Assembly: GCA_963767925.1 (NCBI GenBank)
Contig: CAVYGB010000002.1
Coordinates: forward strand, 576,001-640,000
Direction: 5' to 3'
DNA from: an uncultured delta proteobacterium
GTDB taxonomy: Bacteria > Myxococcota_A > Polyangia > Fen-1088
DNA: 64,000 nucleotides
In this document: in pieces, positions 9,057 to 31,869 of the stretch
How positions within the stretch are numbered: position 1 is the stretch's first letter
Layout: every line of letters starts with the position of its first letter
Notes under the pieces: model-generated
The model's input: only the letters and a program-made list of their open reading frames with translations
Databases searched by the model: none
What the model was told of the DNA's origin: nothing
Position numbers and translations under genes: made by a program

Positions 9057-12173
<3,117 letters not shown>

Positions 12174-12333: not shown

Positions 12334-13302
12334 ATGGCCGCCCGTGTGCCGTCCGAAGCCCTCAACCCCGCGCAGCAGCGCGTGGTCGACCACGGAGACG
12401 GGCCGCTGCTGGTGGTGGCGGGCGCGGGATCGGGCAAGACGCACACGCTGGCCCACCGGGTGGCGGCGCTGGTCGCCCGGGGGGCCGACCCCCGGCGTGT
12501 CCTCCTGCTCACCTTCACCCGCCGGGCCGCGGCCGAGATGGTGCGCCGGGCGGCGCGCATCGCGGGGCTCGGCGGCAAGCACGACGGCCTCTGCTGGGCC
12601 GGCACCTTCCACGCCGTCGCCAACCGGCTGCTGCGCATCCACGCCCCCCGCCTGGGCCTCGACCCGGCGTTCACCTTGCTCGACCGGGAGGACGCCGCCG
12701 ACCTCATCGATCAGCTCCGTCACGAGCAGGGGCTGTCGCGCACCCACGAGCGTTTTCCCCGCAAGGGGACCTGCCTGGCGATCTACTCGCGCGTGGTCAA
12801 CACGCAGGTCCCGCTGCAGGCGTGCCTCGAGACAACATTCCCCTGGTGCCTGTCCTGGCACGATCCCCTGCGCGCGCTGTTCGCCGCCTATGTGGAGGCC
12901 AAGATCGAGCGCCAGGTGCTGGACTACGACGATCTGCTGCTCTACTGGTACCACCTCATGGGCGAGGCAGCCCTCGCCGCCGAGGTAGGCAGCAGGTTTT
13001 CCCACGTGCTCGTCGACGAGTACCAGGACACCAACACGCTGCAGGCGGAGATCCTGGCCCGGCTGCGGCCCGATGGCCGCGGCGTCACGGTGGTGGGCGA
13101 CGACGCCCAGGCCATCTATTCCTTTCGCGCCGCCACCATCCGCAACATCCTCGCCTTCCCCCAGGGGTTCGACCCGCCGGCGGCCGTGTACGCGCTCGAG
13201 CAGAACTACCGCTCGACCCAGCCCATCCTCGCCGCGGCCAACGCCGTCATCGCCCTCGCTTCCGAGCGCCGGGGCTCGGGGGGGCCGGGCCGCGCGAGTT
13301 GA
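12334..13302 (+). pseudogene. UvrD/Rep/PcrA-family helicase, 5' portion (truncated by island)
   Basis: LNPAQ, AGAGSGKT (Walker A), TFTRRAA, GTFH, VDEYQD, VGDDAQAIYSFR and LEQNYRS. Homology ends at 13270. Confidence 0.9.
12781..13270 (+). repeat. 490-bp direct repeat, left copy (internal helicase segment)
   Basis: Matches 26809..27298 apart from two synonymous differences seen by eye (CCG/CCC, GCT/GCC). Confidence 0.95.
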
Positions 13303-13366
13303 CATAGGACACGATATCGGTCGTCTACGTCCGCGCGCGTCATGCAGCGTGATTTTCCTATCATCC
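13269..13366 (+). repeat. 98-bp promoter-like module, copy A
   Basis: Near-identical to 26601..26698. Contains TTGACA (13299-13304), CGATATCG and ATGCAGCGTGATTTTCCTATCATCC. Confidence 0.9.
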
Positions 13367-13539
13367 GAAACCTACGACCCCGAACGGTTCATGGAGACCC
13401 TGGACAACTGGGGCTGGTTCGCCCGACCGTCCGAGGCGCCCCTGTGGTTCGCGGGCGGTTTCTACCGACGAGGCGGCGCTCCCTGACCGGGCGGCCGGCC
13501 GGCGCTGCGGGCGAACCCGGCCATCCCGACAACCGACTC

Positions 13540-13854
13540 CTACGACGGCGGTGACGGCTGGTCTTCCGGCGCGCGCCGTCTGGGCAGGTGGACGCCGTAG
13601 GCGCTGCCGGAGCCTTCCCGGACGACTATCAAGCTGAGGAGGGAGCCCGGAAAACCGAAGATGAACGCGAGGGCCCGCCAGCCGACGCTGGGGTGGTGCT
13701 GCGCCCGCATCCCGGCGTAGCTGACATTGGCCAGCATCCACAGCGCCGTCACGCCACTACGGCCGATCGAATCGCGCGCCCCCTGGTCCGCGGCATGGGC
13801 CATGGTTGTCCACAGCAACGGCAAGAGACCGGACAGGATCTGCATCCAACGCAT
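13540..13854 (-). CDS. small membrane protein
   Basis: Signal-like N-terminus (AHA) plus hydrophobic segments (WRALAFIFGFPGSLLSLIVV). Confidence 0.6.
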   Translation of the reverse strand: MRWMQILSGLLPLLWTTMAHAADQGARDSIGRSGVTALWMLANVSYAGMRAQHHPSVGWRALAFIFGFPGSLLSLIVVREGSGSAYGVHLPRRRAPEDQPSPPS

Positions 13855-13938
13855 GCTTCCGGCTATCACGCCGGCGGGGCCTCCGGGCAAGAAATTTTCA
13901 CGGATCGCGGCCCGCCCAACACGTTGACACTCTTTTTT

Positions 13939-15470
13939 GGCTCTCCGACAGAATCAGTGGGTGATCTGAGACCTCCTGGAGGCCGGTCGCGCCCGCCGCT
14001 CGCTGGATGATACGAGCGTGCGCGGGCGGGTAAAGGGTTCGCGCGGCGGCCGCGCCGGCGCAGCGCCGCCCTTGACCCACCCTGTGCGCGCTCTGCGATT
14101 GGCTGAGATGCGGCGGGCGGGGACGGACTGGGCGGCGACGGGCGAGGGAGAAAGTGGGTCCAACGCTTCCCGGGGCGGGTATCGTCCCGGTTTGCATGAA
14201 CCCGAAGGACCCGAGGTGCAAGTTAAGACGATCTTGAACCGATGTCACCGGTTCAAGTGCTTCGTGTACGGCGTCTGCTACTTGGGCGACGACGGCTCGA
14301 TAAACGTGGCGGTTCGTCCCCGCAAGGGGTCGGCGGCGGTGTGCTCAGGGTGCCAGCGGCCGGGCCGGTCTACGACACGAGCCGAGCACCGCGCGGCTTT
14401 GCCTTCGTGCCGCTGTGGGGCTTCGCCGTGTGGCTGTGGTACTGCATGCCGGGTCGACTGCGCCGAATGCGGCGTCACAGTCGAGGAGGTTCCGTGGGCT
14501 GATGGCAAGAACCCGACCTGCAACGCTTACCGCTTGTTTCTGGCCCGCTGGGCGCGACGACTACCCTGGAGCCAGGTCGCCCAGATCTTCAACAGCAGCT
14601 GGGGCGTGGTGTATCGAGCCATCCGGTGGGTGGTGGACTACGGCCTGGCCCACCGAGATTCCGACAGCGTCGAGGCCATCGGCGTCGACGAGATCGCCGT
14701 GTGGAAGGGTCACAAGTACCTCACCGTCGTGTACCAGATCGACCAGGGCGTTCGCCGGCTGCTTTGGGTCGGCAATGAGCGCACAGTCGAGAGCTTCCGT
14801 GGTTTCTTCGCGATGTTCGGCCAGACCCGCACCCTGGCCCTTCGCTTCGGTGCCAGCGAAATGTGGAAGCCCAACCTCGATGTCATCGCCGAGTTGGCTA
14901 GCCAGACCGTACACGTCCTGGACAGGTTTCACATCGTCGCCAACATGAACAAAGCCGTCGACGAGGTCCGCGCCGGGGAAGCCCGTGAGCTGGTGCGCCA
15001 AGGCTACGAGCCCATCCTCAAGCATTCGAGGTGGTGCTTTCTCAAGCGCCTTGGAGAACCTCAACGACGCCCAGCGGGCCAAGCTCGCCGACGTCCTCAA
15101 GTACGACCTAAGGTCGGTGCGTGCCTACCTGCTCAAGGAGAGCCTGCAGGCCTTCTGGAGATACACCACGGCCGGCGCGGCGGGCTGGTTCCTCGACAAG
15201 TGGTGCACCCGTGCGCTGCGCTCGCGCCTGGAGCCCATCAAGAAGGTCGCGCGTTCTCCGCGGGGCCACCGCGAGCTCATCCTCAACTGGTTCCGAGCGA
15301 AAAAGGAGATCTCCGCCGCCGCCGTCGAGGGTCTGAACGCCAACGTCAAACTCGCACTCAGAAAAGCTCGAGGCTTCCGCACCTTCCAGGTCCTCGAAAC
15401 CGCCCTCTATCACGAGCTCGGCCGGCTATCCGAGCTCCCAGAGATCACCCATAGATTCTGTTGAGGGGGC
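13939..15470 (+). mobile_element. ISL3-family insertion sequence (degenerate)
   Basis: Left IR ggctctccgacagaatcagtgggtgatct versus right IR reverse complement gccccctcaacagaatctatgggtgatct (22/29 match). T-tract on both flanks. Confidence 0.85.
14216..15464 (+). pseudogene. ISL3-family transposase with several frameshifts
   Basis: Zn-finger CSGC...CAEC, IGVDEI, LDRFHIV, and EGLNANVKLALRKARGFR in a second frame after ~15050. Confidence 0.9.
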
Positions 15471-15486
15471 TTTTTTTCAGGTTGCA

Positions 15487-17124
15487 ATGATTCCTCATTT
15501 GATGCTTCTACGCTCTCAGGCGTCCCGGACCTGGTTTCTTGGGCTGATGCTGGCCCATCTGGGCCTGATCTGGGCACTTCCCGTCCTGCCCGCTCAGGAC
15601 CTCCCGCAACATCTCACCTACGCAACCATCCTGCGCGACTACCAGCGCCCGGATAACTTGTTCCGGGAGTTTTACCAGCCCGATGGCGCCAACCAGAGCT
15701 ACTACACCACCTATCGTCTGCTGGTCGGCGCTGCCCGCTTCATAGCGGTCGAGGCCAGCGCGCGCCTGCTCTTTTCCGCCTACGTCATCGCCCTTTTCAT
15801 GTCCTTTCGCGCCCTGGTGCGCACCTGCGTCCCGCCGGGCGGGCCGGCGGCCCAGGCTACTCCGCTGCTCGCATCGCTGCTGGTATGGAATCCGGTCTCA
15901 TGCATGGGGTTTCTGGCCTTCCAGCTGGCGATTCCCGCGCTGCTGAGCGGCGTGGTCGCCTTCGTGCGCCTGGCCGAACGGGAGCAGGAAGTGTCCGTCC
16001 GAAACGCCTGGCCGCTGCTGGCCGCGACGGCCGTGATCGGTTCGTTGCATGTGGTGGCCAGCTGGCTTCTGCTGCTGTTCGCGGGCCTCTATACGGCCCT
16101 CAGCCCGCATCGGCGTCGTCTGCACGCTTTCCTGGTCTTGACCGGCGCAGTGGTCAACGTCACCGCCATCTGGGGCGCCCTCGGTGATGCGCAGATCGCT
16201 GGGCAGCAGGCGCTGGACCTCGCCTCACACGTGAAAAGCGCCTTCGCCTTCGAGTTCATAACCGAGGCTTTCCGCCTGACCTGGCGCGATCCCATCGCCA
16301 AGCTCGGCTACCTGCTCTGGAACGTATTAGGTCCTTTCCGCATCACCGGTCAGGTTCTTGTCGCAGGCGTGCTGCTGGCCGCCTACCTCATGCTGCGGCG
16401 TCCTCCCCGAGAAGCACCGACCGGCCCAACCGGCCTGCGCCGGGCTTTCACCCGTGCGACGCTGGCCCTGCTCGCTCTCAGCTGGCTGATTCCCTGGGGA
16501 ATCCACTTTCCATCCGAAGTGACCTTCCTGGACTTCCGGGTGATGGCGGTGGCCATCATCTTGCTCGCGGCGGTTCCGGATCTCCGCTGGCCGACGCCAA
16601 CCCGGGCGACGGCCCTGGTCGGAATCGCCTGCGCCATCTTGACCGTCCATTTCGGTGTGCGGGCGTTTGCGTTCGGCACCGAGGCCAGGAGTGCGCTCAC
16701 GCTGCTGGAGTCCGCCAGACCAGCTGGGGTGATGATGGGCCTGACGTTTTTTAACCGAAGCGACCACTTCGGCAAGCAGTTCCGGCAGTCTCACTTTCTG
16801 CCCCTCTACTACACGGTTCGCCACGGCGGGATCTCCACCCAGTTCTGGGCCCGCTATACCGACCACCTTCCAGTGGCCTATCGCCCAGGCAAGCGACCCT
16901 CCGCTCCACCGGACTGGCACCCCGGGGAGCTCCGGCCGGCTCATCTCGAGGGCCCGCTCGACTACGTGCTGCTTCAGCGAGCCACCCAGGACAACAGCAC
17001 CCGCGAGCAGCAGACTTCCGGGACCGTCGAGGCGATGCTGAAGACGCGGGCCGATCTGGTTAGCTGCGAAGGAATCTGGTGTCTCTATCGCACGCGTCGG
17101 GGTGGCGTGCCTAAGACACCCTGA
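15487..17124 (+). CDS. polytopic membrane protein, GT-C-like
   Basis: First-loop motif PAQDLPQHL, ~12 hydrophobic segments, soluble C-terminal domain. The true start may be ATG 15502. Confidence 0.7.
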   Translation: MIPHLMLLRSQASRTWFLGLMLAHLGLIWALPVLPAQDLPQHLTYATILRDYQRPDNLFREFYQPDGANQSYYTTYRLLVGAARFIAVEASARLLFSAYVIALFMSFRALVRTCVPPGGPAAQATPLLASLLVWNPVSCMGFLAFQLAIPALLSGVVAFVRLAEREQEVSVRNAWPLLAATAVIGSLHVVASWLLLLFAGLYTALSPHRRRLHAFLVLTGAVVNVTAIWGALGDAQIAGQQALDLASHVKSAFAFEFITEAFRLTWRDPIAKLGYLLWNVLGPFRITGQVLVAGVLLAAYLMLRRPPREAPTGPTGLRRAFTRATLALLALSWLIPWGIHFPSEVTFLDFRVMAVAIILLAAVPDLRWPTPTRATALVGIACAILTVHFGVRAFAFGTEARSALTLLESARPAGVMMGLTFFNRSDHFGKQFRQSHFLPLYYTVRHGGISTQFWARYTDHLPVAYRPGKRPSAPPDWHPGELRPAHLEGPLDYVLLQRATQDNSTREQQTSGTVEAMLKTRADLVSCEGIWCLYRTRRGGVPKTP

Positions 17125-18674
17125 GGCGCCGGGCTGGCGCTTGACCTCGTCCACCAGGCGTGGACCCACCTGACCCCGAGATAGGCGGCGAGCAACAAGG
17201 ACGGCAGGAAAACCACCGGGGTCCGCAGCGTCGAGTACTTCAAAGGATAGATGGCCAGCGCCAGACATGAGAACAGCACCGCCAGCTGGGTGGTGGCCCG
17301 TCGGCTGGCTATGGCGGAAAGGCACACGAACCAGGTGACGTACCAGGGCCAGAACCAGACCGCCAGCAGGCACACGGAGAACATGACCCAGGCGGCGGCA
17401 AGAACCGCCGTGGTCATCGTGGTCACCGAGATCGCTCCCAGGGCGATCGCCGCCAGCGAACCGGTGTTGGCCGCGGCGCGGGCGACCTCTCTGGTCCGGG
17501 AGCCATCCGGTCCCGCCATCATACGGCCGGCCGCGGGGGTCGCCTGACGCTTCTGCAACTCGAGGATGAGCGCCCCCACCGAGTTGGCGAGAAGCTTTTG
17601 CGGCGGGGACCCGGTCAGGACGGCGATGGTCCGCGAACCCTCCCAGAAGCGGCCGTAGAGAACGACGGTGGTGCAGGCGACGATGACCCCGATGCCGGCC
17701 AGCCGTATCCACCGCCGCCAGTCCGGTGGCGCCTCGCGTACCGCCACGATCACGTAGAAGAGTAGCGCCACCAGCGCGGTCCACTTGGTGAGCACCGCCA
17801 GCGTGAACATGACGACCGCCGTCTTCCAGCGTTGCTGATACCCCAGCCAGATTCCGACCAGCATGAGAAACAACATCATCACGTCGTTGTGGCCGTGTCC
17901 GACGAACTCGATCAACAACAGTGGGTTCAACAGATAGAGGAGCGTGCTGAAGGCCTGTCGGTCTGGCGCCACCCGTCCCACGATTTTCCAGATCAGGCCC
18001 GCGCTGCCACCGTGCAGGGCGGCCGCCACCAGCTTGAACAGCAGGACGTAGGTGATGATGGTGCCGCCCAGCCGCTCGGCCAGCCAGGTGACCCCCATTC
18101 CCAGATAGAGCCAGGCGGGCCCGTAGACGCTCGGCTCTCGCTTCCAGTGAACCCACTGCAGGAAGGGATCGGAGACGTACCGCACCGGAGACTCGAGCAG
18201 CGAATTCCCCCCGTGCACCAGGTCGATCCGCCCGTACATGATGTAGCTGTGGATGTCCCCGGAGAGCAGATTGGGCAGGGCGAGCAGGGGCGCGCTGGCC
18301 AGCCCCAGCATCCAGACGGCCGGGCGCAGCCGCCGCCGGGCCACATCGGACGAGCGCGAGCCCAGCAAGAGCCCCACGTATCCCAGCACGATGAGGGCCA
18401 GGGCTCCCGCCTGCCAGAGCTGAGCGCTGGTCACAGCGACGCCGGGGGCAGCCTGGAGCAGTTCCCGGGTCGTCGCCTCCGTGCCCTGCCGCCACGCCGG
18501 GTACTGGAAGAAGCTGTCCCAGATATGGCCGGGAGCCCAGGCCAGGCTCCTCAGCCGCATCACCAGGAACAGACCGAGATGACCGGCCAAAAAGCCGACC
18601 CCCGACACGAGGAAGCCGGACGGACGCGAGAGCCAGCGATCCGCCCGGGCCCGCGCTCGGCGAAGACGGTTCAC
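17085..18674 (-). CDS. GT-C glycosyltransferase, MptA/MptB-like (polyprenol-phosphate-sugar dependent)
   Basis: Motifs LLSGDIHSYIMYGRI, SVYGPAW, NPLLLIEFVGHGHNDVMM, LAVLTK and FWPWY. GTG start overlaps the DsbA stop (TAGTG). Confidence 0.85.
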   Translation of the reverse strand: MNRLRRARARADRWLSRPSGFLVSGVGFLAGHLGLFLVMRLRSLAWAPGHIWDSFFQYPAWRQGTEATTRELLQAAPGVAVTSAQLWQAGALALIVLGYVGLLLGSRSSDVARRRLRPAVWMLGLASAPLLALPNLLSGDIHSYIMYGRIDLVHGGNSLLESPVRYVSDPFLQWVHWKREPSVYGPAWLYLGMGVTWLAERLGGTIITYVLLFKLVAAALHGGSAGLIWKIVGRVAPDRQAFSTLLYLLNPLLLIEFVGHGHNDVMMLFLMLVGIWLGYQQRWKTAVVMFTLAVLTKWTALVALLFYVIVAVREAPPDWRRWIRLAGIGVIVACTTVVLYGRFWEGSRTIAVLTGSPPQKLLANSVGALILELQKRQATPAAGRMMAGPDGSRTREVARAAANTGSLAAIALGAISVTTMTTAVLAAAWVMFSVCLLAVWFWPWYVTWFVCLSAIASRRATTQLAVLFSCLALAIYPLKYSTLRTPVVFLPSLLLAAYLGVRWVHAWWTRSSASPAPQGVLGTPPRRVR

Positions 18675-20005
18675 TAGTTCTGCGCCTTGCGACTGGCGCC
18701 TTCTGCCTCGGGGGCTTCCGTCGCGACCTTGTTCGCCCCGCCGCCGGCCCTGGCCAGAGCCTTCTCCACCAGCATCCGGAGGGCCCAATACGGCGCCGGG
18801 CCTTCTACCCGGCTCCCGTTGATGAAGATCGTCGGCGTCGTCGTCACTCCCAACGCGCGGGCCTGCCCGACATCGGTCAGGACCCGGCTGCGCGCCTGCA
18901 CGTCGGGGCCGCCCGAGGCAGGCAGAGCCAATCCGAGGGCTTCGGCATGGCGTTCGATATCGACGGGCGACTGCGAGATCTGATTGAGGAACAGGTGGTC
19001 GTGCATCTGCCAGAACTTGCCCTGACTCCTCGCTCGCTCGGCCACCTCCGCGGTGCGAAGTGCATCCTGGTCGGTTTCCCCGGGAAAATGCTTGTAAGTG
19101 AGGCGGACGCTGGATCCGTAGGCATCGATGATCCGCTTCAGAGTCCCCGCCATGCGCGCCGATTCACCCGACCTGAAGTCGGCAAACTCCACGATGGTCA
19201 CCAGAGGACGTTCCGCACCCGTCCAGGGACTGTCCCCGGTATCGACCGGAACCGGGCTCTTCATCCGATCCTCCAGCCGGGCCTGTACCCGGGCCAGCTC
19301 ATGGGACAGCAAGGGATCGGGGGGGACCAGCACACGGTACAGGTCGTCCGGATAGCTCGCGCCGGGATGATGACGCTGCACCCGCAGCAGTTCTTCCTCC
19401 ACGACCTTCGACAGCTCTTCGAAGGGGATGGTTCCCGCGACCCGGCGGCCATTCACGAAGAACATGGGAACCTCGTTGAGGGCCAGGCGTCCGCCCCATT
19501 CGATGTCGTCCTCCAACCGCGCCCAGGTCGCATTCGATTGCAGGTCAGCGAAGAACCTGCCCGTATCCATCCCCAGCACGGTGGCCGCCCCGACAATCAC
19601 CTCGCGGCTGGCATCATTCCCCGCGCTGAGCAGCTTCTCATAGAGCTGCAATCCCTGACCCTGACCGCCAGCCGCAATGGCCGCATGGGCCACCAGGCGC
19701 GAGGACTTGTGTCCAGGGAACGGGAAGTGTCGGAGCGACACCCGCACGTCCCTGGGCTTTGCGGCGACCAGGCGTTTCGCGCCGTCGAAGGCCTTCTGGC
19801 AGGGCGGACAATCGCTGTCGCTGTAGAGGATCAAGGTGACCGGCGCGTTCGAAGGGCCAGCGTTGATGTCGGCGATCGGGACGTGGACGCGGGCGATGGC
19901 CACTTCTGACCCGGCGCCGGTGCGCAAGAGCTTGATGAGCCCGTACCCGGCGAAGATCGAGGCCAGGACCGCAGCTGAAGTTGCAATCACATTTTTCATC
20001 ATCAT
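18674..20005 (-). CDS. membrane-anchored tandem DsbA/thioredoxin-fold protein
   Basis: Domain 1 has DCPPC, HFPF and VPMFFVNG. Domain 2 has IVEFADFRSGES, KHFP and TPTIFING. N-terminal TM; ATGA overlap with the upstream gene. Confidence 0.9.
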   Translation of the reverse strand: MMMKNVIATSAAVLASIFAGYGLIKLLRTGAGSEVAIARVHVPIADINAGPSNAPVTLILYSDSDCPPCQKAFDGAKRLVAAKPRDVRVSLRHFPFPGHKSSRLVAHAAIAAGGQGQGLQLYEKLLSAGNDASREVIVGAATVLGMDTGRFFADLQSNATWARLEDDIEWGGRLALNEVPMFFVNGRRVAGTIPFEELSKVVEEELLRVQRHHPGASYPDDLYRVLVPPDPLLSHELARVQARLEDRMKSPVPVDTGDSPWTGAERPLVTIVEFADFRSGESARMAGTLKRIIDAYGSSVRLTYKHFPGETDQDALRTAEVAERARSQGKFWQMHDHLFLNQISQSPVDIERHAEALGLALPASGGPDVQARSRVLTDVGQARALGVTTTPTIFINGSRVEGPAPYWALRMLVEKALARAGGGANKVATEAPEAEGASRKAQN

Positions 20006-20961
20006 TTTTCACCAAACAACGCTTTGTCGAATGTCGGTTGTTGCAAGGAAAACAATCTCACCGCACGCCGCACCTCACGCGCAGACAGCAGCAGCAGCGG
20101 CGCTGGCGCATATGCGAACCAGAACAGAAATGGAACTTCGAAGGCCACAATGATGGAGAGGAAAAAGGCCTGGTAGACCACCGTCGCCCAGAGCCGGGTG
20201 CGTCTCCAGGCGATGGCCAAGGGAAGGGTCAGCTCCAGCAAGACGGTTGCCCAGTTGGCAACGACCGCCACCCCGGGCCACCGCAGGAGCCCCAACTCGA
20301 CCAGCCATCCGCGCACGACAAAGCCGGCGGGGTAGTCGGCCAGCTGGTGAAACCCTCCCTGGAGCGGCCAGCCGGCCGTCAGCTTTTCGACTCCCGCGAA
20401 GAACAGCGAGACGAGAACCAGGCCACTCAGCAGCAGGGCTCCAACCTGGTCGGCGGTGGGTCCCGACGCCGCCGGGAGCGAGCGACCGTCGTGGCCGGCG
20501 GGAGGTGAGTCCCCGTCAGTCTTCTTCCGATCGAGCAAGGAACGCAGGGATAGGGCCTGGTCGGTCGTGACGAAGATGAGGACCGGCAAGAGAATCCAGA
20601 TCGTCTCGAGGGCCAGGGTTCCGACGCTCAAGGCATTCATCGAGGCGAAGAAATACAGGCCCACCAGCGAAACTGCGGCGCACAGGCGGGTGCAAAGACC
20701 GAGCGCCCCTCCCAGGCAGGCCAACATGGTCAGGGCCACCAGAGGCATCACCAGCGTCAGGGGCAGCCGGGCGGCGAGGTCATGGAGGGTGGCGTTGTAT
20801 TGACCGATGCGAAAGGCGTCCCGGCCGAAATTCTCGTCGAAGGCGAAAAACGCCGGAAAATAGTGGACGATCACCCCGCTGAAGAAGAACGCCCGGAACA
20901 GGCCCAGCGCCCGCGCGCGAACTTGCCGGTCAGGACTGGTCGATTGTCGAAAGAGATCCAT
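20002..20961 (-). CDS. HTTM-domain membrane protein (SdpB / vitamin K-dependent gamma-carboxylase-like)
   Basis: Motifs LGLFR, LGLCTR, ALSLRSLL, FFAGVEKLTAGW..G and LELTLPLAIAWRRTR. Confidence 0.8.
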   Translation of the reverse strand: MDLFRQSTSPDRQVRARALGLFRAFFFSGVIVHYFPAFFAFDENFGRDAFRIGQYNATLHDLAARLPLTLVMPLVALTMLACLGGALGLCTRLCAAVSLVGLYFFASMNALSVGTLALETIWILLPVLIFVTTDQALSLRSLLDRKKTDGDSPPAGHDGRSLPAASGPTADQVGALLLSGLVLVSLFFAGVEKLTAGWPLQGGFHQLADYPAGFVVRGWLVELGLLRWPGVAVVANWATVLLELTLPLAIAWRRTRLWATVVYQAFFLSIIVAFEVPFLFWFAYAPAPLLLLSAREVRRAVRLFSLQQPTFDKALFGEK

Positions 20962-21391
20962 TCCAGCACCTGAAAAGCTCGCGTCGGTCGCGGTCCTCAC
21001 GCTCCAGATTTCGCCAGGTCAGCTCGAGGTGGGCGCCCTGCAGGTCCGGTCGTCGGCGACACAGCGACTCCAGATAGGGGCGGGCAGCCTTCATCAGGTT
21101 GAGCGCCAGGCGACTCTGGTGAAAACCTGCGGTCCGCGTGTCCACCAACTCCTGGACAGAGCGGAGCTGCGTTTCGTTCGCCGGCCTGAAGCGCGCAAAG
21201 GGCACCAGTTCGTGAAGCCGGGCGAACATCAGGAACCCGATCGAACGGTGAACGAAGGGGAGAGAAGGAAGCCGGTCCTGCCAGGCGGGCGGCAGAAAGG
21301 TGGTCTTCACCGCCATGACCAGGAACAACCCGAACCAGCACGCCGCCGCGATCATGGGCAGCTGAGCTCGAACGGTTCGCAGGGAAGGCAT
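20930..21391 (-). CDS. SdpA/DUF5819-like partner of HTTM protein
   Basis: One N-terminal TM, GFLMFA (WxMFA-like) motif, YLESLCRR...FRC Cys pair; sits directly upstream of the HTTM gene. GGAG precedes ATG 21391 (alternative start 21439). Confidence 0.6.
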   Translation of the reverse strand: MPSLRTVRAQLPMIAAACWFGLFLVMAVKTTFLPPAWQDRLPSLPFVHRSIGFLMFARLHELVPFARFRPANETQLRSVQELVDTRTAGFHQSRLALNLMKAARPYLESLCRRRPDLQGAHLELTWRNLEREDRDRRELFRCWNGSLSTIDQS

Positions 21392-21411
21392 CCAGGTCTC
21401 CGCGGGTTCGA

Positions 21412-22059
21412 TCAACGCGGGTTCAGGCCCGGTAAACATGCGAGGGCGCCCTGGGTCCTGACCCGGACCCGGTCACTGCCCTGGTAGGCGTCCGGGAACT
21501 CATGGTCCGGGGCGGGTTCGGCCGCCCTGAGCGTGGAGGCCCGCAGGGCGAAGCAGTCCAGGGCCTGGGGAGGAAGCGTCAGATTGCCCAGAACGCGCTC
21601 GAGGACGATGTTGGAAAGACTGGCCTTGTATTCGGTGGCATTGATGTCCACCCGGAAGATCAGGTCGACGCTGGCGGCGCTGTCCGGCGGCCAGCAGGGC
21701 TCCAGGCGGTCGACCAGCGCCAGCTCGATTGCGTTGCGTAGAGCCGCCGCTCTCCTCGAAATCTCGTATTTGCTCTCCACGATCATCTCGTCCAGGGGGC
21801 CGAGCTCGACAGCGGTTTCCGACGCCTTCGCCGAGCTGATCACCTCCAGCGCTCCCCGCAACTGATCAGCCGTCGGGCGAGACACCGGTCCTTCGGCGGG
21901 AAGCGGGCGGGAATCCTCGGTCGGGGCGGGGGCGGCCGAAGCCAAGGGAGCCGGCCCGTCCGGGGCGGGATGACCCCTCAGCATGACCAGTCTCGTCAGG
22001 ACAAACGCCGTCGTGAGAGGCAGCGCCGTGATCAGCAGCAGCGAGGCAAGTGGTCGCAT
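21412..22059 (-). CDS. membrane-anchored protein with possible TonB-C/AgmX-like C-terminal domain
   Basis: N-terminal TM, Pro-rich linker, LEPCW...LDCF Cys pair. Starts 10 nt after the upstream stop. Confidence 0.6.
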   Translation of the reverse strand: MRPLASLLLITALPLTTAFVLTRLVMLRGHPAPDGPAPLASAAPAPTEDSRPLPAEGPVSRPTADQLRGALEVISSAKASETAVELGPLDEMIVESKYEISRRAAALRNAIELALVDRLEPCWPPDSAASVDLIFRVDINATEYKASLSNIVLERVLGNLTLPPQALDCFALRASTLRAAEPAPDHEFPDAYQGSDRVRVRTQGALACLPGLNPR

Positions 22060-22069
22060 GGGTCTGGCC

Positions 22070-22747
22070 TCAGATGGGCGGTATGGGTGGAAAATCCGTG
22101 GGGCGGAACGTCTCGCGGCTACGCAGCGTCTCCAGGTCGGTCTGGCGCGCCTTCTGATACCAGGCTCGGTAGTCATCGGGCGCGCGGTGGCTCGCGCTGA
22201 AAACGAGGGTCAGACAGGTGCTGGCCCCACCATTTTGCAGTCTGGAATTCGGCCCGAAGTGCACGGTGTCGGCCAGGGGGACGTAGGCCGCCAGACGGCG
22301 CGCTTTGGTCAAGTAGCTCAGGTCGTCCGCCTCCATGCACAGTCGACAGGTCATCGTGCGGCAGTCGACATCGGACAGCCGCGCGCCGGGCAGGACGGCG
22401 GCAAAGTCCCGGGTCAGGGTCTCCTTCACTGACTGCTCGATGCGCGAGGCCCAGACGTCGTCGCGGCCCTCCTTGTCGTAGAGCTCACCCGGCCGCATCG
22501 ACAGCTTGACCAGCTTGTTCGCGTCGTAGTCGGGGGCGCGATGGTCGAGCGTCAGTGTCTTCTTCGCGGAAACTGGAGGCACGAACTTCGGAACCGTCTT
22601 CGGTCTTTCGCGGGCGGCTATCTCCGCCGCGGGTTTGCCGCTTCCGACGTCACCGCCAGCCCAAGGAGGCCGCGGCGTCAACCACCAGGCCAGGCAGATC
22701 CCCACCAGCGTGCAGGCAGCCGCCAGCACCAACTTGCGTCTGTTCAT
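22070..22747 (-). CDS. membrane-anchored hypothetical protein with CxxxxC motif
   Basis: MNRRKLVLAAACTLVGICLAWW anchor; RDDVWASRIE...VDCRTMTCRL. Confidence 0.75.
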   Translation of the reverse strand: MNRRKLVLAAACTLVGICLAWWLTPRPPWAGGDVGSGKPAAEIAARERPKTVPKFVPPVSAKKTLTLDHRAPDYDANKLVKLSMRPGELYDKEGRDDVWASRIEQSVKETLTRDFAAVLPGARLSDVDCRTMTCRLCMEADDLSYLTKARRLAAYVPLADTVHFGPNSRLQNGGASTCLTLVFSASHRAPDDYRAWYQKARQTDLETLRSRETFRPTDFPPIPPI

Positions 22748-22772
22748 GGTCGTCACCACGTCCGAGGTCGCG

Positions 22773-22809
22773 GCCGTGAGGGCCTCGATGGGGGCCGAGT
22801 CCTCACGGC
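22773..22809 (-). terminator. intergenic stem-loop after peptide gene (attenuator or mRNA stabiliser)
   Basis: Perfect 9-bp stem gccgtgagg/cctcacggc plus inner ctcg/cgag; no U-tract. Confidence 0.55.
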
Positions 22810-22822
22810 GTTGCGAGTTGAA

Positions 22823-23107
22823 TTAGGTTCCTGATCCCTCGTCGCAGCCGGACACTTCCTTGCAGCTGTTGCAGGTCAGAAGATCGAACGGGCCGCAGGG
22901 GTTCGTCTCCATCGTGCAGCTCTTCTGCGTCGATTCCGGACCGTTGCAGTCACAGCCCGCGGTGCAGAACTGGCATCGCTCCCAGGTGCTGCAACCGGCT
23001 TCGGCGGGCGCTCCCACAGCCAGTCCGCCTCTGCTCGTGTCGATCGACGCCACAAAGGCGCCCAGGGCAATCCCGAGGACAGACAGGACCAGAGTCACTT
23101 TTTTCAT
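22823..23107 (-). CDS. secreted Cys-rich peptide (94 aa; predicted 57-aa mature part with 10 Cys)
   Basis: AGGA RBS, MKKVTLVLSVLGIALGAFVA signal, then AEA followed by GCSTWERCQFCTAGCDCNGPESTQKSCTMETNPCGPFDLLTCNSCKEVSGCDEGSGT. Confidence 0.85.
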   Translation of the reverse strand: MKKVTLVLSVLGIALGAFVASIDTSRGGLAVGAPAEAGCSTWERCQFCTAGCDCNGPESTQKSCTMETNPCGPFDLLTCNSCKEVSGCDEGSGT

Positions 23108-23492
23108 GTGCTTTCCTATCGCAGGTGGTCGTTGATGAACTGGCACGTAAAAACAACGCGCCTGATTAGAGAATAGAGACCGTGCCCACGACGCTGTCTA
23201 CCAAAGATTCATGGATTGCCGCTTAAGGCGGGAGTCTGACCGGCCCGACAGCATAAAATAGATCGTAATTACATGGACTTATGACGAGAGCCTGGACGTG
23301 CAAAAAATTGCCGCCTGAGAGGCCCCTGCGCTCTGTCGACCACGAGAAGAGGGCTACTGCCAATAGGTCTGTGCCCATCCGCATACCCGTGCGTCGGCGT
23401 CAAGGGGGCGTGGATAGAGGACTGAATGCCGTCAGCAACGCTTCGCGTCTCGAATAAGCGGGGCCTGAAATTGACCCGACAGGGACGAGTCC

Positions 23493-24764
23493 TCAGGCGG
23501 GCTGGGGCTCTCTACGTCCCAGCGGGCCCCAGAGGTGCCCGGCGGTGGCCACCGCCAGAAAGGGCAGGACCCAGAGCAGGTAGTTCCGGTGCACGATCCC
23601 GCTGCCCAGGAAGAGAAGCACCAGCGTCTGGGACACCAGGGCGGCGATGGCGGCGGGCGTGTGGGGCCGGGGCGAGCGCAGGTGGCGCCAGATCAGGAAT
23701 CCGATCCCCAGGACGGTCGCCGCGCTGACGACCAGTCGGGCGGCGGGCGGCAGGAAGAAGGCTAGGCTGGTGGAGTCGGGGCGCCGTGAAAGCTGGAACA
23801 GGAGGATGCCAGCGATCAGCTCGCGCGGGGAGGTCAGCAGGGAGGGCAGGTAGCAGGCGATCGAGACGGCCCCGGCCACCGCGAGAGCCCGCCACCGGCC
23901 CCGCCAGGTCGACGGTCCCGCCGACGCCGACGGCGCGAGCAGCAGCGGAACCGCCAGCAGCAGACCGGGCAACAGCTTGGCGCCGATGCTCGCTCCGATC
24001 AGGGCCGCTGAGAGGAGGGGGCGATTCCGGCTGCGCGCGGCGAACGCCAGCAGCCCGAGCGCCACCGGGACCGCGTCGTTCACCCCGGCCTGGAAGAGCT
24101 CCTTGTGAACGAATCCGGGAACCAGGACCAGAAGGGCAGCCCCCAGCCCGGCGGTCAGACCGCCCCGGTCGGCGGCCCACAGGCCCGCGCCCGCCGCCAT
24201 CAGCCCGTAGGCCACGACGGTCGTCGCGAAGTACCCGGCCAGGCCCGCCCCGAGGACACCCGGCGCGTAGGCCCAGATCATCATCGGTCCGTACTTGAAG
24301 CCGCCGTAAAAGGCGAAACCCGAGCCGCCGGGATTCTCCCGCGCCCCCAGGCGGTCCATGAAAAGCTCGTAGGGCGAAAGGCCACGCGCCCACAGCTCGA
24401 CCGCCCGGATGGTCGTCTGGCCGATGTCCACCGTCGGCATGCGCGCGTCCAGCACGACCGCGCCCGCCTGCACCAGACGCCAGGCCAGGAGCATCCCCAG
24501 GGCGACGGCCAGCGCCGCCACTAGCCCGGGCAGGGGCCGGGGCTCCCGCTCGCGCAGAGCGGTCACCAGCATCAGCACCCCGCCCAGCATCAGGGCCCGC
24601 TCCACGCCCCGACCCCAGTCCGCCCAGGCCAGGGCGAAAAACCCGACGAAGAAGCCGACCAGCGGCAGCAGCACCCCCAGCGCGAAGGTCCGGGCTTCGC
24701 CGGCAACCGATGTGGCCACCGGCGGCCAGAAGGTTCGCGAGTTGACCGGCGCCCGCGCGCTCAC
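23493..24764 (-). CDS. GT87/DUF2029-like GT-C glycosyltransferase
   Basis: PTVDIG loop Asp, FKYGP, GVNDAVP, GASIGAKLLP and NYLLW motifs; GTGA overlap with the upstream stop. Confidence 0.75.
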   Translation of the reverse strand: MSARAPVNSRTFWPPVATSVAGEARTFALGVLLPLVGFFVGFFALAWADWGRGVERALMLGGVLMLVTALREREPRPLPGLVAALAVALGMLLAWRLVQAGAVVLDARMPTVDIGQTTIRAVELWARGLSPYELFMDRLGARENPGGSGFAFYGGFKYGPMMIWAYAPGVLGAGLAGYFATTVVAYGLMAAGAGLWAADRGGLTAGLGAALLVLVPGFVHKELFQAGVNDAVPVALGLLAFAARSRNRPLLSAALIGASIGAKLLPGLLLAVPLLLAPSASAGPSTWRGRWRALAVAGAVSIACYLPSLLTSPRELIAGILLFQLSRRPDSTSLAFFLPPAARLVVSAATVLGIGFLIWRHLRSPRPHTPAAIAALVSQTLVLLFLGSGIVHRNYLLWVLPFLAVATAGHLWGPLGRREPQPA

Positions 24765-26458
24765 GACCGACCCGTGGCCAGGTCGGTGGACAGAGCCACC
24801 TGACGGTGGCGGGCCCACCAGGCGCGGGCCCACCTGACCCCGAAGTAGAGCGTCAGCAGCATGGTGGGAACGAACACCACCACCGTGCGCAGGTACGAAT
24901 ACCTCAGGGGATAGATGACCAGCCCCAGGGAGGAGAAGAGGACCCCGAGTTGCATGAGCGCCCGGCTACCCGTCAGCGGAACCAGACTCAGGGACCAGGT
25001 CGCGTACCAGGGCCAGAACCACACCGCCAGCAGGCAGACGAAGAACAGGACCCAGGCGGCCGCCGCGACCGCCGCGCTCATCGAGGTCACCGTTGCCGCC
25101 CCCAGCGCCAGCGCCACCAGAGTCGCCGTCTGGCTGATGTCACGTACCACCGTCTTGTCCCGGTAATTTTCCGGTCCCGGCATCACGCCCATGCGGTACC
25201 CTCGGGCGGGGCGGCCATCGCCTGGACCGTGCGGCGCGGAACCGGGGCCAGCATTCCGTCCGGACCCACCAGCGCGCGTTGCACGCCCTTGCGCCGATCG
25301 ACGATCAGCGCTCACCGAGTTCGCCATCATCTTCTGCGGCGGCGACCGGGTGAGCATGGCGAACGAGTCCGGCCCCCCCCAGAAGCGAGCGTAGAGCGCG
25401 ACAGTGGTGAGCGCCACCAGCATGCCGGCTTCCGCCAGCCGCGCCCACCGCCGCCAGTCGGCAGGGGCCTCCCGCGCCACCACGATGAGGTAAAAGAGCA
25501 GCGCCACCAGGGCGGTCCATTTCGTGACCACCGCCAGGGTGAACGCCACCACCGCCACCGGCCAGTGCTTCTGGTACCCCAGCCCGACCCCCAACAGCAT
25601 CAGGAACACCATCATGGCGTCGTTGTGCCCCTGTCCCACGAACTCGATCAGCGCCAGGGGATTGATCAGATAAAAGAGTGTGCCGAAAGCCTGCCTCTCG
25701 GGCGCCACCCGCCCCAGGATCTTCCAGATCAGGCCCGCGCTGCCAAAGTGCAGGGCGGTGGGCAGGAGCTTGAACAGCAGGGTGTAGACGATGATGGTGC
25801 CGCCCAGCCGCTCGGCCAGCCACGTCACCCCCATGCCGACGTAGAACCAGGCCGGCCCATAGACGCTCGGTTCGCGTTTCCAGTGGACCCAGGGCAAGAA
25901 GGAATCAGAGACGTAGCGCGACGGCGCTTCGAGCAGCGAGTTGCCCCCGTGCAGCAGGTCGATGCGCCCATACATGATGTAGCTGTGGATGTGGCCCGAC
26001 AGCAGGTTGGGCAGCACCAGCAGGATCGCGCTCGCCAGCCCGGCCAGCCAGACGACGCTGGGTAGCCGGCGCCGGGAGAGCGCGGGGGTGAGCGAGCCCA
26101 GCAGGATCCCGACGTACCCGAGCACGATCACCATCAGGCTTCCCAGCTGCAAGAGCTGCTCGCCCGTCACGGCGATCCCCGGGGCGGCCTGCAGCAACGC
26201 CCGGGCACCGAACTCCGTGCCGTGTCGCCACTTCGGGTAGTCGAAGAAGCTGTCCAGGATGTGGCCGGGAGCCCAGGCCAGGGTCCTGGACCGCATCACC
26301 AGGAAAAAGAGGAGATGGCCGGTCAGAAAGACCGCCGCCGACACGGCGAAGCCCGGCCGTCCCGAGAGCCATCGGACCATCCGCTCCCTGACCGAAGTTG
26401 AACGGGTCGCTCCGGAAGGACTGTCTGCTGGGCTCAAGAGATCACCTAGGGTTCGCAT
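24761..26458 (-). CDS. second MptA/MptB-like GT-C glycosyltransferase, paralog of 17085..18674
   Basis: Clearly alignable paralog (LAWAPGHI, YGRIDL, WVHWKREPSVYGPAW, GHND, FWPWY). Has SGHIHSY instead of SGDIHSY, and a possibly off-frame patch at ~25200-25310. Confidence 0.8.
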   Translation of the reverse strand: MRTLGDLLSPADSPSGATRSTSVRERMVRWLSGRPGFAVSAAVFLTGHLLFFLVMRSRTLAWAPGHILDSFFDYPKWRHGTEFGARALLQAAPGIAVTGEQLLQLGSLMVIVLGYVGILLGSLTPALSRRRLPSVVWLAGLASAILLVLPNLLSGHIHSYIMYGRIDLLHGGNSLLEAPSRYVSDSFLPWVHWKREPSVYGPAWFYVGMGVTWLAERLGGTIIVYTLLFKLLPTALHFGSAGLIWKILGRVAPERQAFGTLFYLINPLALIEFVGQGHNDAMMVFLMLLGVGLGYQKHWPVAVVAFTLAVVTKWTALVALLFYLIVVAREAPADWRRWARLAEAGMLVALTTVALYARFWGGPDSFAMLTRSPPQKMMANSVSADRRSAQGRATRAGGSGRNAGPGSAPHGPGDGRPARGYRMGVMPGPENYRDKTVVRDISQTATLVALALGAATVTSMSAAVAAAAWVLFFVCLLAVWFWPWYATWSLSLVPLTGSRALMQLGVLFSSLGLVIYPLRYSYLRTVVVFVPTMLLTLYFGVRWARAWWARHRQVALSTDLATGRS

Positions 26459-26600
26459 AAATCAAAAAAGATGCTGCGGGACAAATAATGAGGTCTCTTG
26501 CGACAGGCATGTCCATGGAAAAGGGCGGCCCTTTCGAGCTCGTGCGATCTCCCTCACGCCGCGCGCGGGAGCGGGCGGGTGCCGATACGGATAGAACGCC

Positions 26601-26698
26601 CCGGGGCTCGGGGGGGGCCGGGCCGCGCGAGTTGACATAGACACGATATCGGTCGTCTACGTCCGCACGCGTCATGCAGCTTGATTTTCCTATCATCC
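26601..26698 (+). repeat. 98-bp promoter-like module, copy B
   Basis: Near-identical to 13269..13366. TTGACA at 26632-26637, ATG at 26674. Confidence 0.9.
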
Positions 26699-28394
26699 CA
26701 TCGCCTCCGGGTCGACCAGCTTGGTCCCCAGGGGCGGCATCTGCAGCAGCGGGTGGCGCGTGCGCATGTTCGCCAGGTGCTGAGGGTGGTGACCAAGGCC
26801 TCGATGCAATCTACTCGCGCGTGGTCAACACGCAGGTCCCCCTGCAGGCGTGCCTCGAGACAACATTCCCCTGGTGCCTGTCCTGGCACGATCCCCTGCG
26901 CGCGCTGTTCGCCGCCTATGTGGAGGCCAAGATCGAGCGCCAGGTGCTGGACTACGACGATCTGCTGCTCTACTGGTACCACCTCATGGGCGAGGCAGCC
27001 CTCGCCGCCGAGGTAGGCAGCAGGTTTTCCCACGTGCTCGTCGACGAGTACCAGGACACCAACACGCTGCAGGCGGAGATCCTGGCCCGGCTGCGGCCCG
27101 ATGGCCGCGGCGTCACGGTGGTGGGCGACGACGCCCAGGCCATCTATTCCTTTCGCGCCGCCACCATCCGCAACATCCTCGCCTTCCCCCAGGGGTTCGA
27201 CCCGCCGGCGGCCGTGTACGCGCTCGAGCAGAACTACCGCTCGACCCAGCCCATCCTCGCCGCGGCCAACGCCGTCATCGCCCTCGCCTCCGAGCGCCAC
27301 GCCAAGGAGCTGTTCTCCACCCGCCCCGGCGGACAGCGCCCGCGGCTGGTCACGGTGGCCGACGAGATCGCCGAGGTCGACTACGTCGTCGGGCGCATCC
27401 TCGAGCGGCGCGAGACCGGTGTGCCCCTGCGCCAGCAGGCGGTGCTCTTCCGGGCCGCCCACCACAGCGATCTGCTGGAGGTGGAGCTCGGCCGCCGCAA
27501 CATCCCCTTCGTGAAGTACGGAGGCCTGCGCTTCCTGGAGGCGGCCCACGTCAAGGACATGCTGGCCGTCCTGCGCTGGGCGGAGAACCCCCGCGACGCG
27601 CTGGCCGGCTTCCGCGTGGCCCAGCTCCTGCCCGGCGTCGGCCCCCAGACCGCCGCCCGGCTGTGCGCGGAGCTGGCGGCGGCCAGCGTCGGCACGCGCG
27701 AGGCGCTGGCCGGCTGGAGCCCGCCGCCGGCTGCCCGCGCCGACTGGCCCGCCTTCGTCGATCTGTACGCCCGGCTGTGCGACGTCGCCACCCCCTGGGC
27801 CGGCCAGCTGGGCCTGGTCCGCCGCTGGTACGAGCCGCACCTCGATCGAATCTACGACAACGCCCGCGTGCGGCTGGGCGACCTGGAGCAGCTCGAGCAG
27901 CTGGCCGCCGCCGCGCCCTCGCGGGAGCGCTTCCTGTCGGACCTGGCGCTCGATCCCCCGAGGCCACGGGCGCCGAGGCGGGCCCGCCCCACCTCGACGA
28001 GGATCACCTCGTCCTTTCGACGGTCCACTCGGCCAAGGGGCAGGAGTGGGACTCGGTGTTCGTGCTCCACGTGGCCGACGGCTGCTTCCCCTCCGACCTG
28101 GCGACGGGGAGCCCCGACCAGATCGAGGAGGAGCGGCGGCTGCTCTACGTGGCGATGACCCGGGCCAAGAACCTGCTCGAGCTGGTGCACCCGCTGCGCT
28201 TCTTCATCCGCCAGCAGGCCCGCCGGGGCGACCGCCACGTTTTCACGCCGCGCACGCGCTTCATCCCCGAAGCGATCCTGGACCGCTTCGAGCGCACCTC
28301 CCCGATCCTCGAGCTCCCGAGCAACGACGTGGCGCCGGGGTCGGCCCCGCCGGCCGTGGACGTGGCCGGACGCTTGCGCGCCTCCTGGCGCTGA
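26674..28394 (+). pseudogene. UvrD/Rep helicase 3' portion with chimeric N-terminus; frameshift at C5 run 27955-27959
   Basis: DEYQD, NYRS and AVLFR in one frame; STVHSAKGQEW and EERRLLYVAMTRAK in the next frame. Lacks Walker A. Confidence 0.85.
26809..27298 (+). repeat. 490-bp direct repeat, right copy
   Basis: Matches 12781..13270. Confidence 0.95.
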
Positions 28395-31695: not shown

Positions 31696-31869
31696 TCCTG
31701 CGAAGTCTAGCGACCATCCGACACGCCCGCAGCTTTCCTGCAACGTAAGTCCCCACTCCCCCCGACCCTAAGGCCCACCACGCTTCACGACGGCGCAAAT
31801 GGTGTGCCCAGGGAACGAGCCATGCTCTTAGAAGATAGGTCCTCCCTTCGGCTCGCGAGCGGGATTGGC

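Follow-up and report, generated by a model that had tools for sequence, protein, structure and literature searches.

A compact gene array on a mobile island of a Polyangia bacterium as a candidate pathway for modifying a ten-cysteine secreted peptide

The window analysed here is a 64,000-nucleotide (nt) stretch of DNA from an uncultured delta proteobacterium of the class Polyangia (GenBank assembly GCA_963767925.1, contig CAVYGB010000002.1, positions 576,001 to 640,000). Its minus strand carries a compact array of seven genes (g1 to g7, positions 23107-17085) which, judged from sequence, stands as a plausible candidate for a pathway that modifies a peptide outside the cell in a novel way. The array begins with the gene of a secreted, ten-cysteine peptide (g1) and includes genes for an HTTM protein with the membrane fold of the vitamin K-dependent gamma-carboxylases (VKGC; g5), a small anchor protein coupled to it (g4) and a DsbA-fold protein (g6). 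The explanation that we tentatively favour is that g1 may be oxidatively folded by the DsbA protein g6 and modified by a split VKGC-like enzyme composed of g4 and g5. The putative link of g1 to these enzymes is drawn entirely from the operon structure; that g1 is the client of g4, g5 and g6, and all of the chemistry proposed below, is what we infer. An earlier note on this DNA had proposed an extracytoplasmic peptide-modification operon with SdpA-like and HTTM/VKGC-like components. Its overall interpretation is partly supported, since the fold and family calls for g5, g6 and the peptide held, while no match of g4 to SdpA or of g5 to SdpB was obtained.

The secreted peptide and its gene array

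The seven co-directional genes claimed earlier were borne out by the list of open reading frames (ORFs) and by the sequence. The first gene, g1 (23107-22823), encodes a secreted protein of 94 amino acids (aa), in which a signal peptide is followed by a variable spacer of about 16 aa and then by a core of 50 aa that contains 10 Cys. Its ATG is preceded, at a distance of 6 nt, by the Shine-Dalgarno-like motif AGGAAAG, a strong ribosome-binding site. When 1.84 billion representative sequences were searched with phmmer (E≤0.001), three proteins were obtained, namely g1 itself, one homologue (P0007) and a weak match to a repeat protein (P0008). The homologue (91 aa, 41% identity, E 2e-17) carries all ten Cys at identical spacing (C-x5-C-x2-C-x3-C-x-C-x9-C-x6-C-x7-C-x2-C-x5-C), and several other residues are also kept. 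Because the ten Cys are retained in this way, g1 can be taken, on sequence comparison, as a real gene family under structural constraint, and the claim that a secreted peptide is a real product of the locus is upheld by the conservation of the full Cys pattern.

The mature peptide had been predicted as a segment of 57 aa. Its composition was right, the 10 Cys, 5 Glu and 3 Asp being correctly counted from G38 onward, but the proposed cleavage at AEA|G seems the less likely one. Since the hydrophobic stretch (h-region) of the signal peptide stops at about residue 20, cleavage by signal peptidase is predicted to be more likely near A20-S21 than before G38. Such a cut would leave the spacer of about 16 aa ahead of the Cys core, and it is this spacer that differs between both homologues. 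In a crude scan of the genome, small signal-peptide-like ORFs with at least eight Cys numbered 11 in 9.34 Mb, g1 counted in. About 0.006 such ORFs are expected within 3 kb of a given site, and about 0.06 across the nine places in the genome that give an HTTM hit; a g1-type ORF next to such a place by chance is roughly a 6% event.

The 545-aa repeat protein P0008 contains four copies of W-x-C...GCDC-x-G-x-E-x-TQ, resembling the N-terminal half of the g1 core. It was rejected as a relative, the resemblance being one of motif only (the short W-x-C...GCDC-x-G, E 4.5e-4), which could reflect a shared mini-domain or chance. Two weak hits in genomes of the class (E 1e-4 and 4.5e-4) were likewise dismissed. 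The hit in genome G395 (L040) lies antisense to real genes and has an internal stop; that in G689 (L041) has an internal stop and was set aside by analogy with G395 only.

Behind g1, a stem-loop had been reported, and a stable hairpin was indeed found there (minus strand, about 22809-22773; −31.7 kcal/mol, z −2.7), to which 2 of 200 shuffled sequences fold equally well. As a U-tract is absent, a role in the processing or stability of the transcript would seem likelier than intrinsic termination. The six genes which follow had been described as separated by at most about 20 nt or overlapping. This agrees with our reading, which rests on the most plausible start codons: the gaps are 10 and 20 nt, and the other junctions are overlaps. 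The order is g2 (22759-22070, 229 aa, 6 Cys) and g3 (22059-21412, 215 aa, 3 Cys), both N-terminally anchored orphans, followed by g4 (21391-20930), g5 (20961-20002), g6 (20005-18674) and g7 (18674-17085, 529 aa from a GTG start). The ATG of g3 follows a 10-nt gap containing GAGG, and the start of g4 at 21391 follows a 20-nt gap, with an alternative start at 21439. The g5 start at 20961 is the choice of the source's gene caller (P0001, 319 aa) and gives an overlap of 32 nt with g4; residues of g5 are numbered here in a 332-aa frame starting at 21000. Next, g5 and g6 share ATGA (20005-20002), and g6 and g7 share TAGTG (18676-18672), the GTG start of g7 being a predicted one. A scan for sigma-70 promoters and terminators was uninformative: promoter-like sites numbered one where 0.7 would be expected, and those resembling terminators fell within coding regions. 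All seven products are membrane-anchored, multi-pass or secreted. The label "extracytoplasmic" is therefore right, because each product is either multi-pass or has an N-terminal hydrophobic segment.

The VKGC-fold core, its anchor protein and the disulfide catalyst

The HTTM/VKGC-like assignment of g5 found agreement in Pfam, in the fold and in a conserved catalytic Lys and acid. First, g5 matched PF05090 with 32.0 bits (cut-off 27.7, E 1e-7), only residues 189-302 being aligned (hidden Markov model positions 145-253), and a genome-wide HTTM scan gave the same result. Secondly, with an AlphaFold2 model of g5 (predicted local distance difference test (pLDDT) 71, alignment of seven sequences), the top 16 Foldseek hits in the PDB were all human GGCX (E 5e-5, probability 1.00, TMq 0.56-0.58). 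Structure comparison placed model residues 13-322 on GGCX 46-327 (Z 17.2, 263 aligned residues, root-mean-square deviation 6.1 Å), and the next unrelated fold scored Z 7.4. As modelled, g5 is the membrane core of the VKGC fold without a lumenal domain, because the aligned GGCX range is 46-327 and residue 332 is its last. At the level of sequence, neither g5 nor a small g5 profile gave a match in the PDB. Relatives of g5 with 34-40% identity were found in seven genome records of Polyangia or Polyangiaceae, one being the G395 contig, and these define seven related HTTM loci (L007-L013); metagenome contigs and plasmids contained no close relative.

The active site was mapped in two steps, a canonical HTTM copy of the same genome (L032) being aligned to GGCX (E 2e-41), and g5 with its clade then to L032. 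K206 of g5, the Lys of an invariant FFAGVEK, aligns with GGCX K218, and the invariant E256 with D263; through L032, W211 corresponds to W223 and F293 to F299. In the accessible text of the sources, the Lys-acid pair K218/D263 is described as deprotonating the quinol and W223/F299 as belonging to the CO2 pocket (10.64898/2026.03.26.714578; PMC12647623). The same text assigns to Asn159-His160 of human GGCX the binding of the substrate glutamate, and places Tyr395 in the lumenal domain (PMC12647623). An equivalent of Asn159-His160 is present in L032 and absent in g5 and its clade, and g5 residues 116-140 contain no His. This absence is one of the points that weigh against the favoured explanation. 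Tyr395 has no counterpart in g5, as it lies in the missing lumenal domain.

Since g5 lacks the Glu-holding Asn-His pair and has another domain in place of the lumenal one, gamma-carboxylation of Glu is only one possibility for the chemistry and the target residue. That g4 and g5 carboxylate acidic residues of g1, which would make this the first bacterial gamma-carboxyglutamate (Gla)-type peptide pathway and a menaquinol-dependent one, seems to us quite unlikely. If it were true, a DsbA-folded and maybe glycosylated product would make the pathway a bacterial counterpart, on a mobile island, of conotoxin or clotting-factor maturation.

Nine places in the genome give an HTTM hit, and two are strong canonical copies with 249 and 258 bits (L032 and L031, at G000:C8:2869570-2870337 and C8:2888418-2889194). 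One canonical copy, of 471 aa, has a C-terminal VKGC-like extension and aligns to GGCX 19-474 (construct numbering, E 2e-41). With these copies among the nine places, the organism has several distinct types of HTTM protein, to which g5 of the island adds one.

Directly upstream of g5, the g4 product had been called SdpA-like or DUF5819, and for this no sequence match was obtained. The SdpA model TIGR04034 found nothing in the whole genome at E≤10, the Bacillus subtilis control being positive. A Pfam scan of eight g4-family members at E≤10 gave no relevant family, nor did NCBIfam, PADLOC and PHROGs for g4 itself. For g5 there was no match to SdpB either, no NCBIfam family matching at E≤0.01. 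What g4 shares with SdpA is the arrangement, with an N-terminal transmembrane helix and a gene directly upstream of, and coupled to, the HTTM gene. It can be placed, as a divergent member with 18-28% identity, in an unnamed family that has two invariant Cys; the family comprises at least 193 proteins, almost all of them of Polyangia-type origin. A gene of this family lies directly upstream of the HTTM gene at all seven related loci, one of which has two pairs, and it overlaps this HTTM clade in 8 of 8 pairs. The AlphaFold2 model of g4 (pLDDT 78) consists of one transmembrane helix and a small alpha/beta domain. The fold gave no significant match in the PDB (best Foldseek E 0.055; best Z 5.1 by structure comparison), and GGCX was not among the 50 matches listed for the latter. 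A weak lead in the Atlas to VKGC_lumenal_dom (score 0.76) was the only hint of this kind.

The g6 product, described earlier as a double DsbA, has two DsbA-fold domains behind one N-terminal transmembrane segment, matching PF13462 (E 3e-32, 112 bits) and PF01323 (E 3e-22, 80 bits) above cut-off. The call stands, with a CxxC motif in the first domain only. The protein has two Cys in total, those of CPPC in domain 1, and domain 2 has SGES at that place. Domain 2 is thus predicted to be a redox-inactive copy because it has no Cys. Tandem multi-DsbA proteins were seen in 41 of the 41 related genomes searched (e.g. G401-G435), in frames of about 900 aa with several DsbA domains, and the organism's own genome gave 15 matches in the same search. 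As they occur in all 41, dedicated DsbA arrays are a lineage trait and not special to the g1-g7 cluster. For g2 no family was found in Pfam, NCBIfam or other libraries, and its only match among 5.8 billion clusters was itself. Library scans gave no family for g3 either. The two are not paralogous to each other nor to the small anchored proteins of the related Polyangia loci. PADLOC and PHROGs gave no match for g1-g5 or for dn_545, a neighbouring membrane protein described below.

The adjacency of g5 and g6 bears on an alternative, in which the HTTM protein, standing in for DsbB or VKOR, couples quinone chemistry to the reoxidation of DsbA, and g1 is a mere DsbA client. It could explain why g5 and g6 are translationally coupled by the ATGA overlap, and it would fit the fact that VKOR was not found in the genome (84% complete). 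In addition, the animal vitamin K cycle, as described in the accessible text of 10.64898/2026.03.26.714578, links VKOR to thioredoxin-fold oxidoreductases. However, g5 has three Cys, of which only C95 is invariant in the family, and no CxxC pair that could serve a thiol-disulfide relay. A DsbB gene is encoded elsewhere in the genome, and the related HTTM loci are without DsbA. We regard this alternative as highly improbable.

The island, related loci and the weighing of explanations

The array is carried by a 13.5-kb segment (13271-26805) that splits a UvrD-like helicase gene, the N-terminal part of which is at 12334-13302 and the remainder at 26674-28394 by Pfam. A 493-nt direct duplication of helicase sequence flanks the segment (12778-13270 and 26806-27298, plus strand, 99.4% identical), and 101-nt direct repeats lie just inside the duplication (13266-13366 and 26598-26698, plus strand, 95% identical). 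At the left end is an ISL3-family transposase (14018-15464, plus strand) read in two frames, PF01610 positions 1-123 falling in ORF 14018-15454 and positions 124-238 in ORF 14985-15464. A genome of the same genus (G401) has an unbroken helicase gene, with one copy of the stretch that is duplicated here, which represents the empty site. GC content is 62-68% in the island genes and 71.2% in the genome, and third-position GC content is 0.69-0.87 in the island genes and 0.87-0.97 in three flanking genes. Taken together, the split helicase, the duplication and repeats, the intact G401 gene, the low GC and the transposase identify the segment, at the level of sequence, as a horizontally acquired insertion. 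Its mode of insertion could have been Campbell-type recombination or a transposon-mediated event, an assembly artefact being a further candidate. Two overlapping frames are needed to read the ISL3 transposase, and likewise the C-terminal part of the helicase, which may reflect true frameshifts or long-read homopolymer errors; if the latter are real, caution is needed on start codons elsewhere in the window. The flanking native genes, such as those for a class I aminoacyl-tRNA synthetase (9057-12173, minus strand, E 6e-140) and a CotH-kinase-family protein (30100-31743, minus strand, E 3e-23), are unrelated to the island.

The last gene of the array, g7, had been called a GT-C glycosyltransferase. 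A resemblance to the GT87/MptA type was seen, with all scores below the curated cut-offs (PF09594, E 0.0024, 18.1 bits against 25; TIGR03459, E 1e-15, 57.7 bits against 439). The protein has about 12 hydrophobic segments, and such a multi-pass topology fits GT-C. Relatives of low identity occur in 4 of 40 related genomes, where the flanking contexts were too short or uninformative. Upstream of g1, on the same island and the minus strand, lies a two-gene unit made up of a 446-aa GT87-family GT-C glycosyltransferase (23493-24833; PF09594, E 7e-6, 26.3 bits, just above the cut-off of 25) and a 565-aa paralogue of g7 (24761-26458, 64% identity). On the plus strand and convergent with g7 is dn_545, a 545-aa multi-pass membrane protein (15487-17124), which is probably another GT-C-like glycosyltransferase. 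It has no Pfam match; its nearest Atlas clusters (score 0.99) are auto-named RgtA/B/C/D-like glycosyltransferase, and the nearest that carries a Pfam family has PMT_2, both being leads only. It is homologous to a membrane protein of about 500 aa from the Polyangia HTTM loci (E 2e-5). Of the 11 genes on the island, four are thus GT-C-like, namely the GT87 gene, the two MptA-like paralogues and dn_545. Glycosylation of g1 is speculative, and the four genes point as much to a glycolipid or a glycopolymer.

An alternative explanation is an envelope-glycoconjugate island, in which the GT-C-like enzymes build a mannan-like glycolipid or glycopolymer outside the membrane, the DsbA protein folds these or other envelope proteins, and the substrate of the HTTM pair is a lipid, a quinone or some other component of the envelope. 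The small secreted g1 product would then have only the island, and perhaps the transcript, in common with these enzymes, and would not be modified by g4 and g5. The share of GT-C-like genes on the island accords with this. GT87/MptA-type enzymes are known for lipoglycan synthesis, as with PimE and MptA in mycobacteria, and not for protein glycosylation. The commonness of tandem DsbA proteins in related genomes points the same way, and giant-virus VKGC-like epoxidases have been proposed, in the accessible text of 10.64898/2026.03.26.714578, to act in lipid modification. It is harder to reconcile with the fact that g1, whose product needs up to five disulfides, heads a closely packed array of seven genes that includes a DsbA of its own, and with the rarity of small Cys-rich secreted ORFs in the genome. 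Moreover, those bacterial HTTM and accessory modules for which genetics exist (SdpAB) act on a peptide of the same operon, as far as the accessible text of PMC6818787 describes them. On balance we consider this explanation possible though doubtful.

The seven related HTTM loci bear on the same question. A GT-C enzyme, of PMT_2 type or another, is present at 6 of 7, and a dn_545 homologue at 3 of 7, several contigs ending early; both occur there without g1, which speaks for an envelope-glycoconjugate function. A multihaem-TPR protein, a lipoprotein of about 390 aa with 11-16 Cys and an anchored protein of about 165 aa are present at all seven, a trypsin-like protease with a Cys-rich tail at six and a 37-Cys lipoprotein at three. 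The pair of anchor and HTTM proteins therefore recurs with Cys-rich secreted proteins and GT-C enzymes, and never with g1; g2, g3, g6 and g7 are absent at all seven loci. As an observation in its own right, this Polyangia locus (e.g. L009:2769-15769) is conserved, multi-gene and present in many natural replicates, and it appears undescribed; it may be a better system than the island for further study.

The explanation that we favour, g1 as a folded and modified client, would run as follows. The horizontally acquired island would encode a pathway that works wholly at or outside the cytoplasmic membrane. Its g1 product would be exported by Sec as a small protein with a rigid ten-cysteine core, and the hairpin behind g1 would probably raise its message relative to those of the accessory genes. 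The exported core would be oxidised by g6, with up to five disulfides, through the one active CPPC domain, while the redox-dead thioredoxin-fold domain may hold the client; a housekeeping DsbB encoded elsewhere would reoxidise g6. Together, g4 and g5 would form a split, two-subunit vitamin-K-carboxylase-like enzyme, in which g5 is the transmembrane core and g4, by analogy, may supply an extra transmembrane helix and an extracytoplasmic domain that replaces the lumenal one. Most likely, g5 would draw on menaquinol and O2 for the formation of a strong base on the outer side of the membrane, so modifying g1 by carboxylation or by another base-driven change. Chaperone, immunity or processing functions are candidate roles for the membrane-anchored orphans g2 and g3. 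The four GT-C-like enzymes would use lipid-linked sugars outside the membrane, with the peptide as a possible acceptor. What we count in favour of this explanation is the tight packing with overlaps, the strong ribosome-binding site of g1, the rarity of Cys-rich ORFs, the conservation of the peptide, the fact that the whole gene set moves as one island, and the presence of Cys-rich secreted proteins and GT-C enzymes at the related HTTM loci. We also count the membrane-bound or exported nature of every product, the VKGC fold of g5 with its aligned active-site residues, the recurrence of g4-family genes ahead of this HTTM clade, and the published DUF5819/HTTM, SDP and linaridin systems compared below.

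Besides the missing Asn-His pair, a number of observations weigh against it. The only true homologue of g1, P0007, lies on a single contig of 1838 bp. No homologue was found in JGI metagenome contigs, viral contigs or plasmids, or among 400 genomes of the class, once the two weak hits had been dismissed. A survey of HTTM neighbourhoods, where a peptide gene had been expected, gave a g1 homologue at 0 of 7 loci. Co-occurrence of precursor and modifying enzymes across genomes, a mark of clusters for ribosomally synthesised and post-translationally modified peptides, was correspondingly seen at 0 of 7. No second copy of the g1-g7 cluster was found, and the cluster is a singleton among the collections searched. 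Genes of the g5 type were not found in 88 other genomes of the family and were found in one of 400 other genomes sampled from the phylum (the G395 contig), a rarity that is in line with recent acquisition. Neither SdpA/DUF5819 nor the lumenal domain of GGCX was detectable as a relative of g4 by sequence or among the fold matches listed, and the failure to find a VKOR gene in the genome is a further point. No protease, exporter, immunity or regulator gene was recognisable in the cluster. The earlier note had stated that its proposal would be refuted if homologous clusters usually lacked the peptide gene. Formally this is what was found, but in substance the 0 of 7 is not decisive, because the collections searched contained no close relative of the cluster, and the seven loci are distant, of different architecture and equipped with other Cys-rich secreted proteins.

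Comparison with known systems

In Bacillus subtilis, as described in the accessible text of PMC6818787, SdpA and the HTTM protein SdpB are required to process exported SdpC into the peptide SDP by a mechanism that is unknown. The sdpABC operon, and yitPOM with it, resembles the island in that a small accessory gene directly precedes the HTTM gene and both share an operon with a Sec-exported precursor. It is conceivable on this basis that g1 is the precursor of a bacteriocin-like toxin, that g4 and g5 serve its proteolytic processing or release and not carboxylation, and that g2 and g3 are immunity or processing factors. The logic is the same, a Sec-exported precursor with a small protein and an HTTM protein (PMC6818787), and the variable spacer of about 16 aa in both peptide homologues could be a pro-segment. 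In contrast to sdpABC, however, the precursor gene comes first in the island cluster and not last, and g4 and g5 fail the NCBIfam models of SdpA and SdpB. The g1 core is hydrophilic with 10 Cys, whereas SDP is a hydrophobic 42-mer. The island adds DsbA and GT-C genes, and neither SdpI/SdpR-like genes nor a protease were recognisable in Pfam and NCBIfam scans. We therefore hold a toxin system of this kind to be unlikely; this model and that of a redox relay are weaker than that of an envelope glycan.

The closest structural parallel to g5 is human GGCX, with which it shares the transmembrane fold and residues corresponding to K218, D263 (as Glu), W223 and F299. Like the substrates of GGCX, the candidate substrate g1 is secreted, Cys-rich and acidic, and has a spacer between signal peptide and core. 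In contrast to GGCX, g5 has no lumenal domain in cis and no Asn159-His160, and the enzyme is split over two genes; the genome shows no VKOR, and no Gla-domain-like sequence was seen. A split arrangement has been modelled elsewhere. According to the accessible text of a preprint (10.64898/2026.08.19.745780), models of neighbouring DUF5819 and HTTM proteins give a complex that looks like the whole of GGCX, in which the transmembrane helix of the small protein replaces a GGCX helix and its domain sits at part of the lumenal domain. The g4/g5 pair is alike in having an N-terminal transmembrane helix and a domain of about 120 aa beside an HTTM core that lacks a lumenal domain. It differs in that g4 is not DUF5819 by Pfam, and its likeness to such pairs is known from genes and single-protein models. 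The same preprint describes MloH, of malonomycin biosynthesis, as a fused bacterial vitamin K-dependent carboxylase; its substrate is an intermediate of a polyketide synthase-nonribosomal peptide synthetase (PKS-NRPS) pathway and not a ribosomal peptide.

An HTTM protein within a ribosomal-peptide cluster is also seen in linaridin clusters, where such a protein of unexplained role, e.g. CrdG, occurs together with an alpha/beta hydrolase (accessible text of PMC9927463). The island is, however, without alpha/beta hydrolase, decarboxylase and methyltransferase, and g1 has a Sec signal and a disulfide core in place of a leader and a dehydrated linear core. The Polyangia locus (L007-L013) shares with the island the anchor and HTTM pair (HTTM identity 34-40%), the dn_545 homologue, GT-C enzymes and Cys-rich secreted proteins. 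It differs in having the multihaem-TPR protein, the 390-aa Cys-rich lipoprotein, the trypsin-like protease and a PMT_2-type GT-C enzyme, and in having no DsbA, g1, g2 or g3.

The claim that no described system has this combination agrees with the literature searched, subscription-only papers not being covered. HTTM and accessory modules beside peptide genes are already known, from SDP and the linaridins. What is new, in that it was not found in this literature, is a ten-Cys Sec-exported core together with a dedicated, half-active tandem DsbA protein and GT-C genes on a mobile island. The action of bacterial homologues of vitamin K-dependent carboxylase on proteins has long been an open question. 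The known cases are limited to MloH, whose substrate is a small-molecule intermediate, and SdpAB, which is defined genetically but opaque in mechanism. If g1 is not modified, the locus would be no more than a mobile island of the usual envelope-glycan type, to which an orphan Cys-rich protein belongs. If it is modified, a new extracytoplasmic peptide-modification chemistry would be at hand, together with a function for the unnamed g4 family. As a test case the island is compact and self-contained, with one small and readily measured secreted peptide, a two-gene VKGC-like enzyme that keeps the quinol-activating residues, and a dedicated disulfide catalyst.

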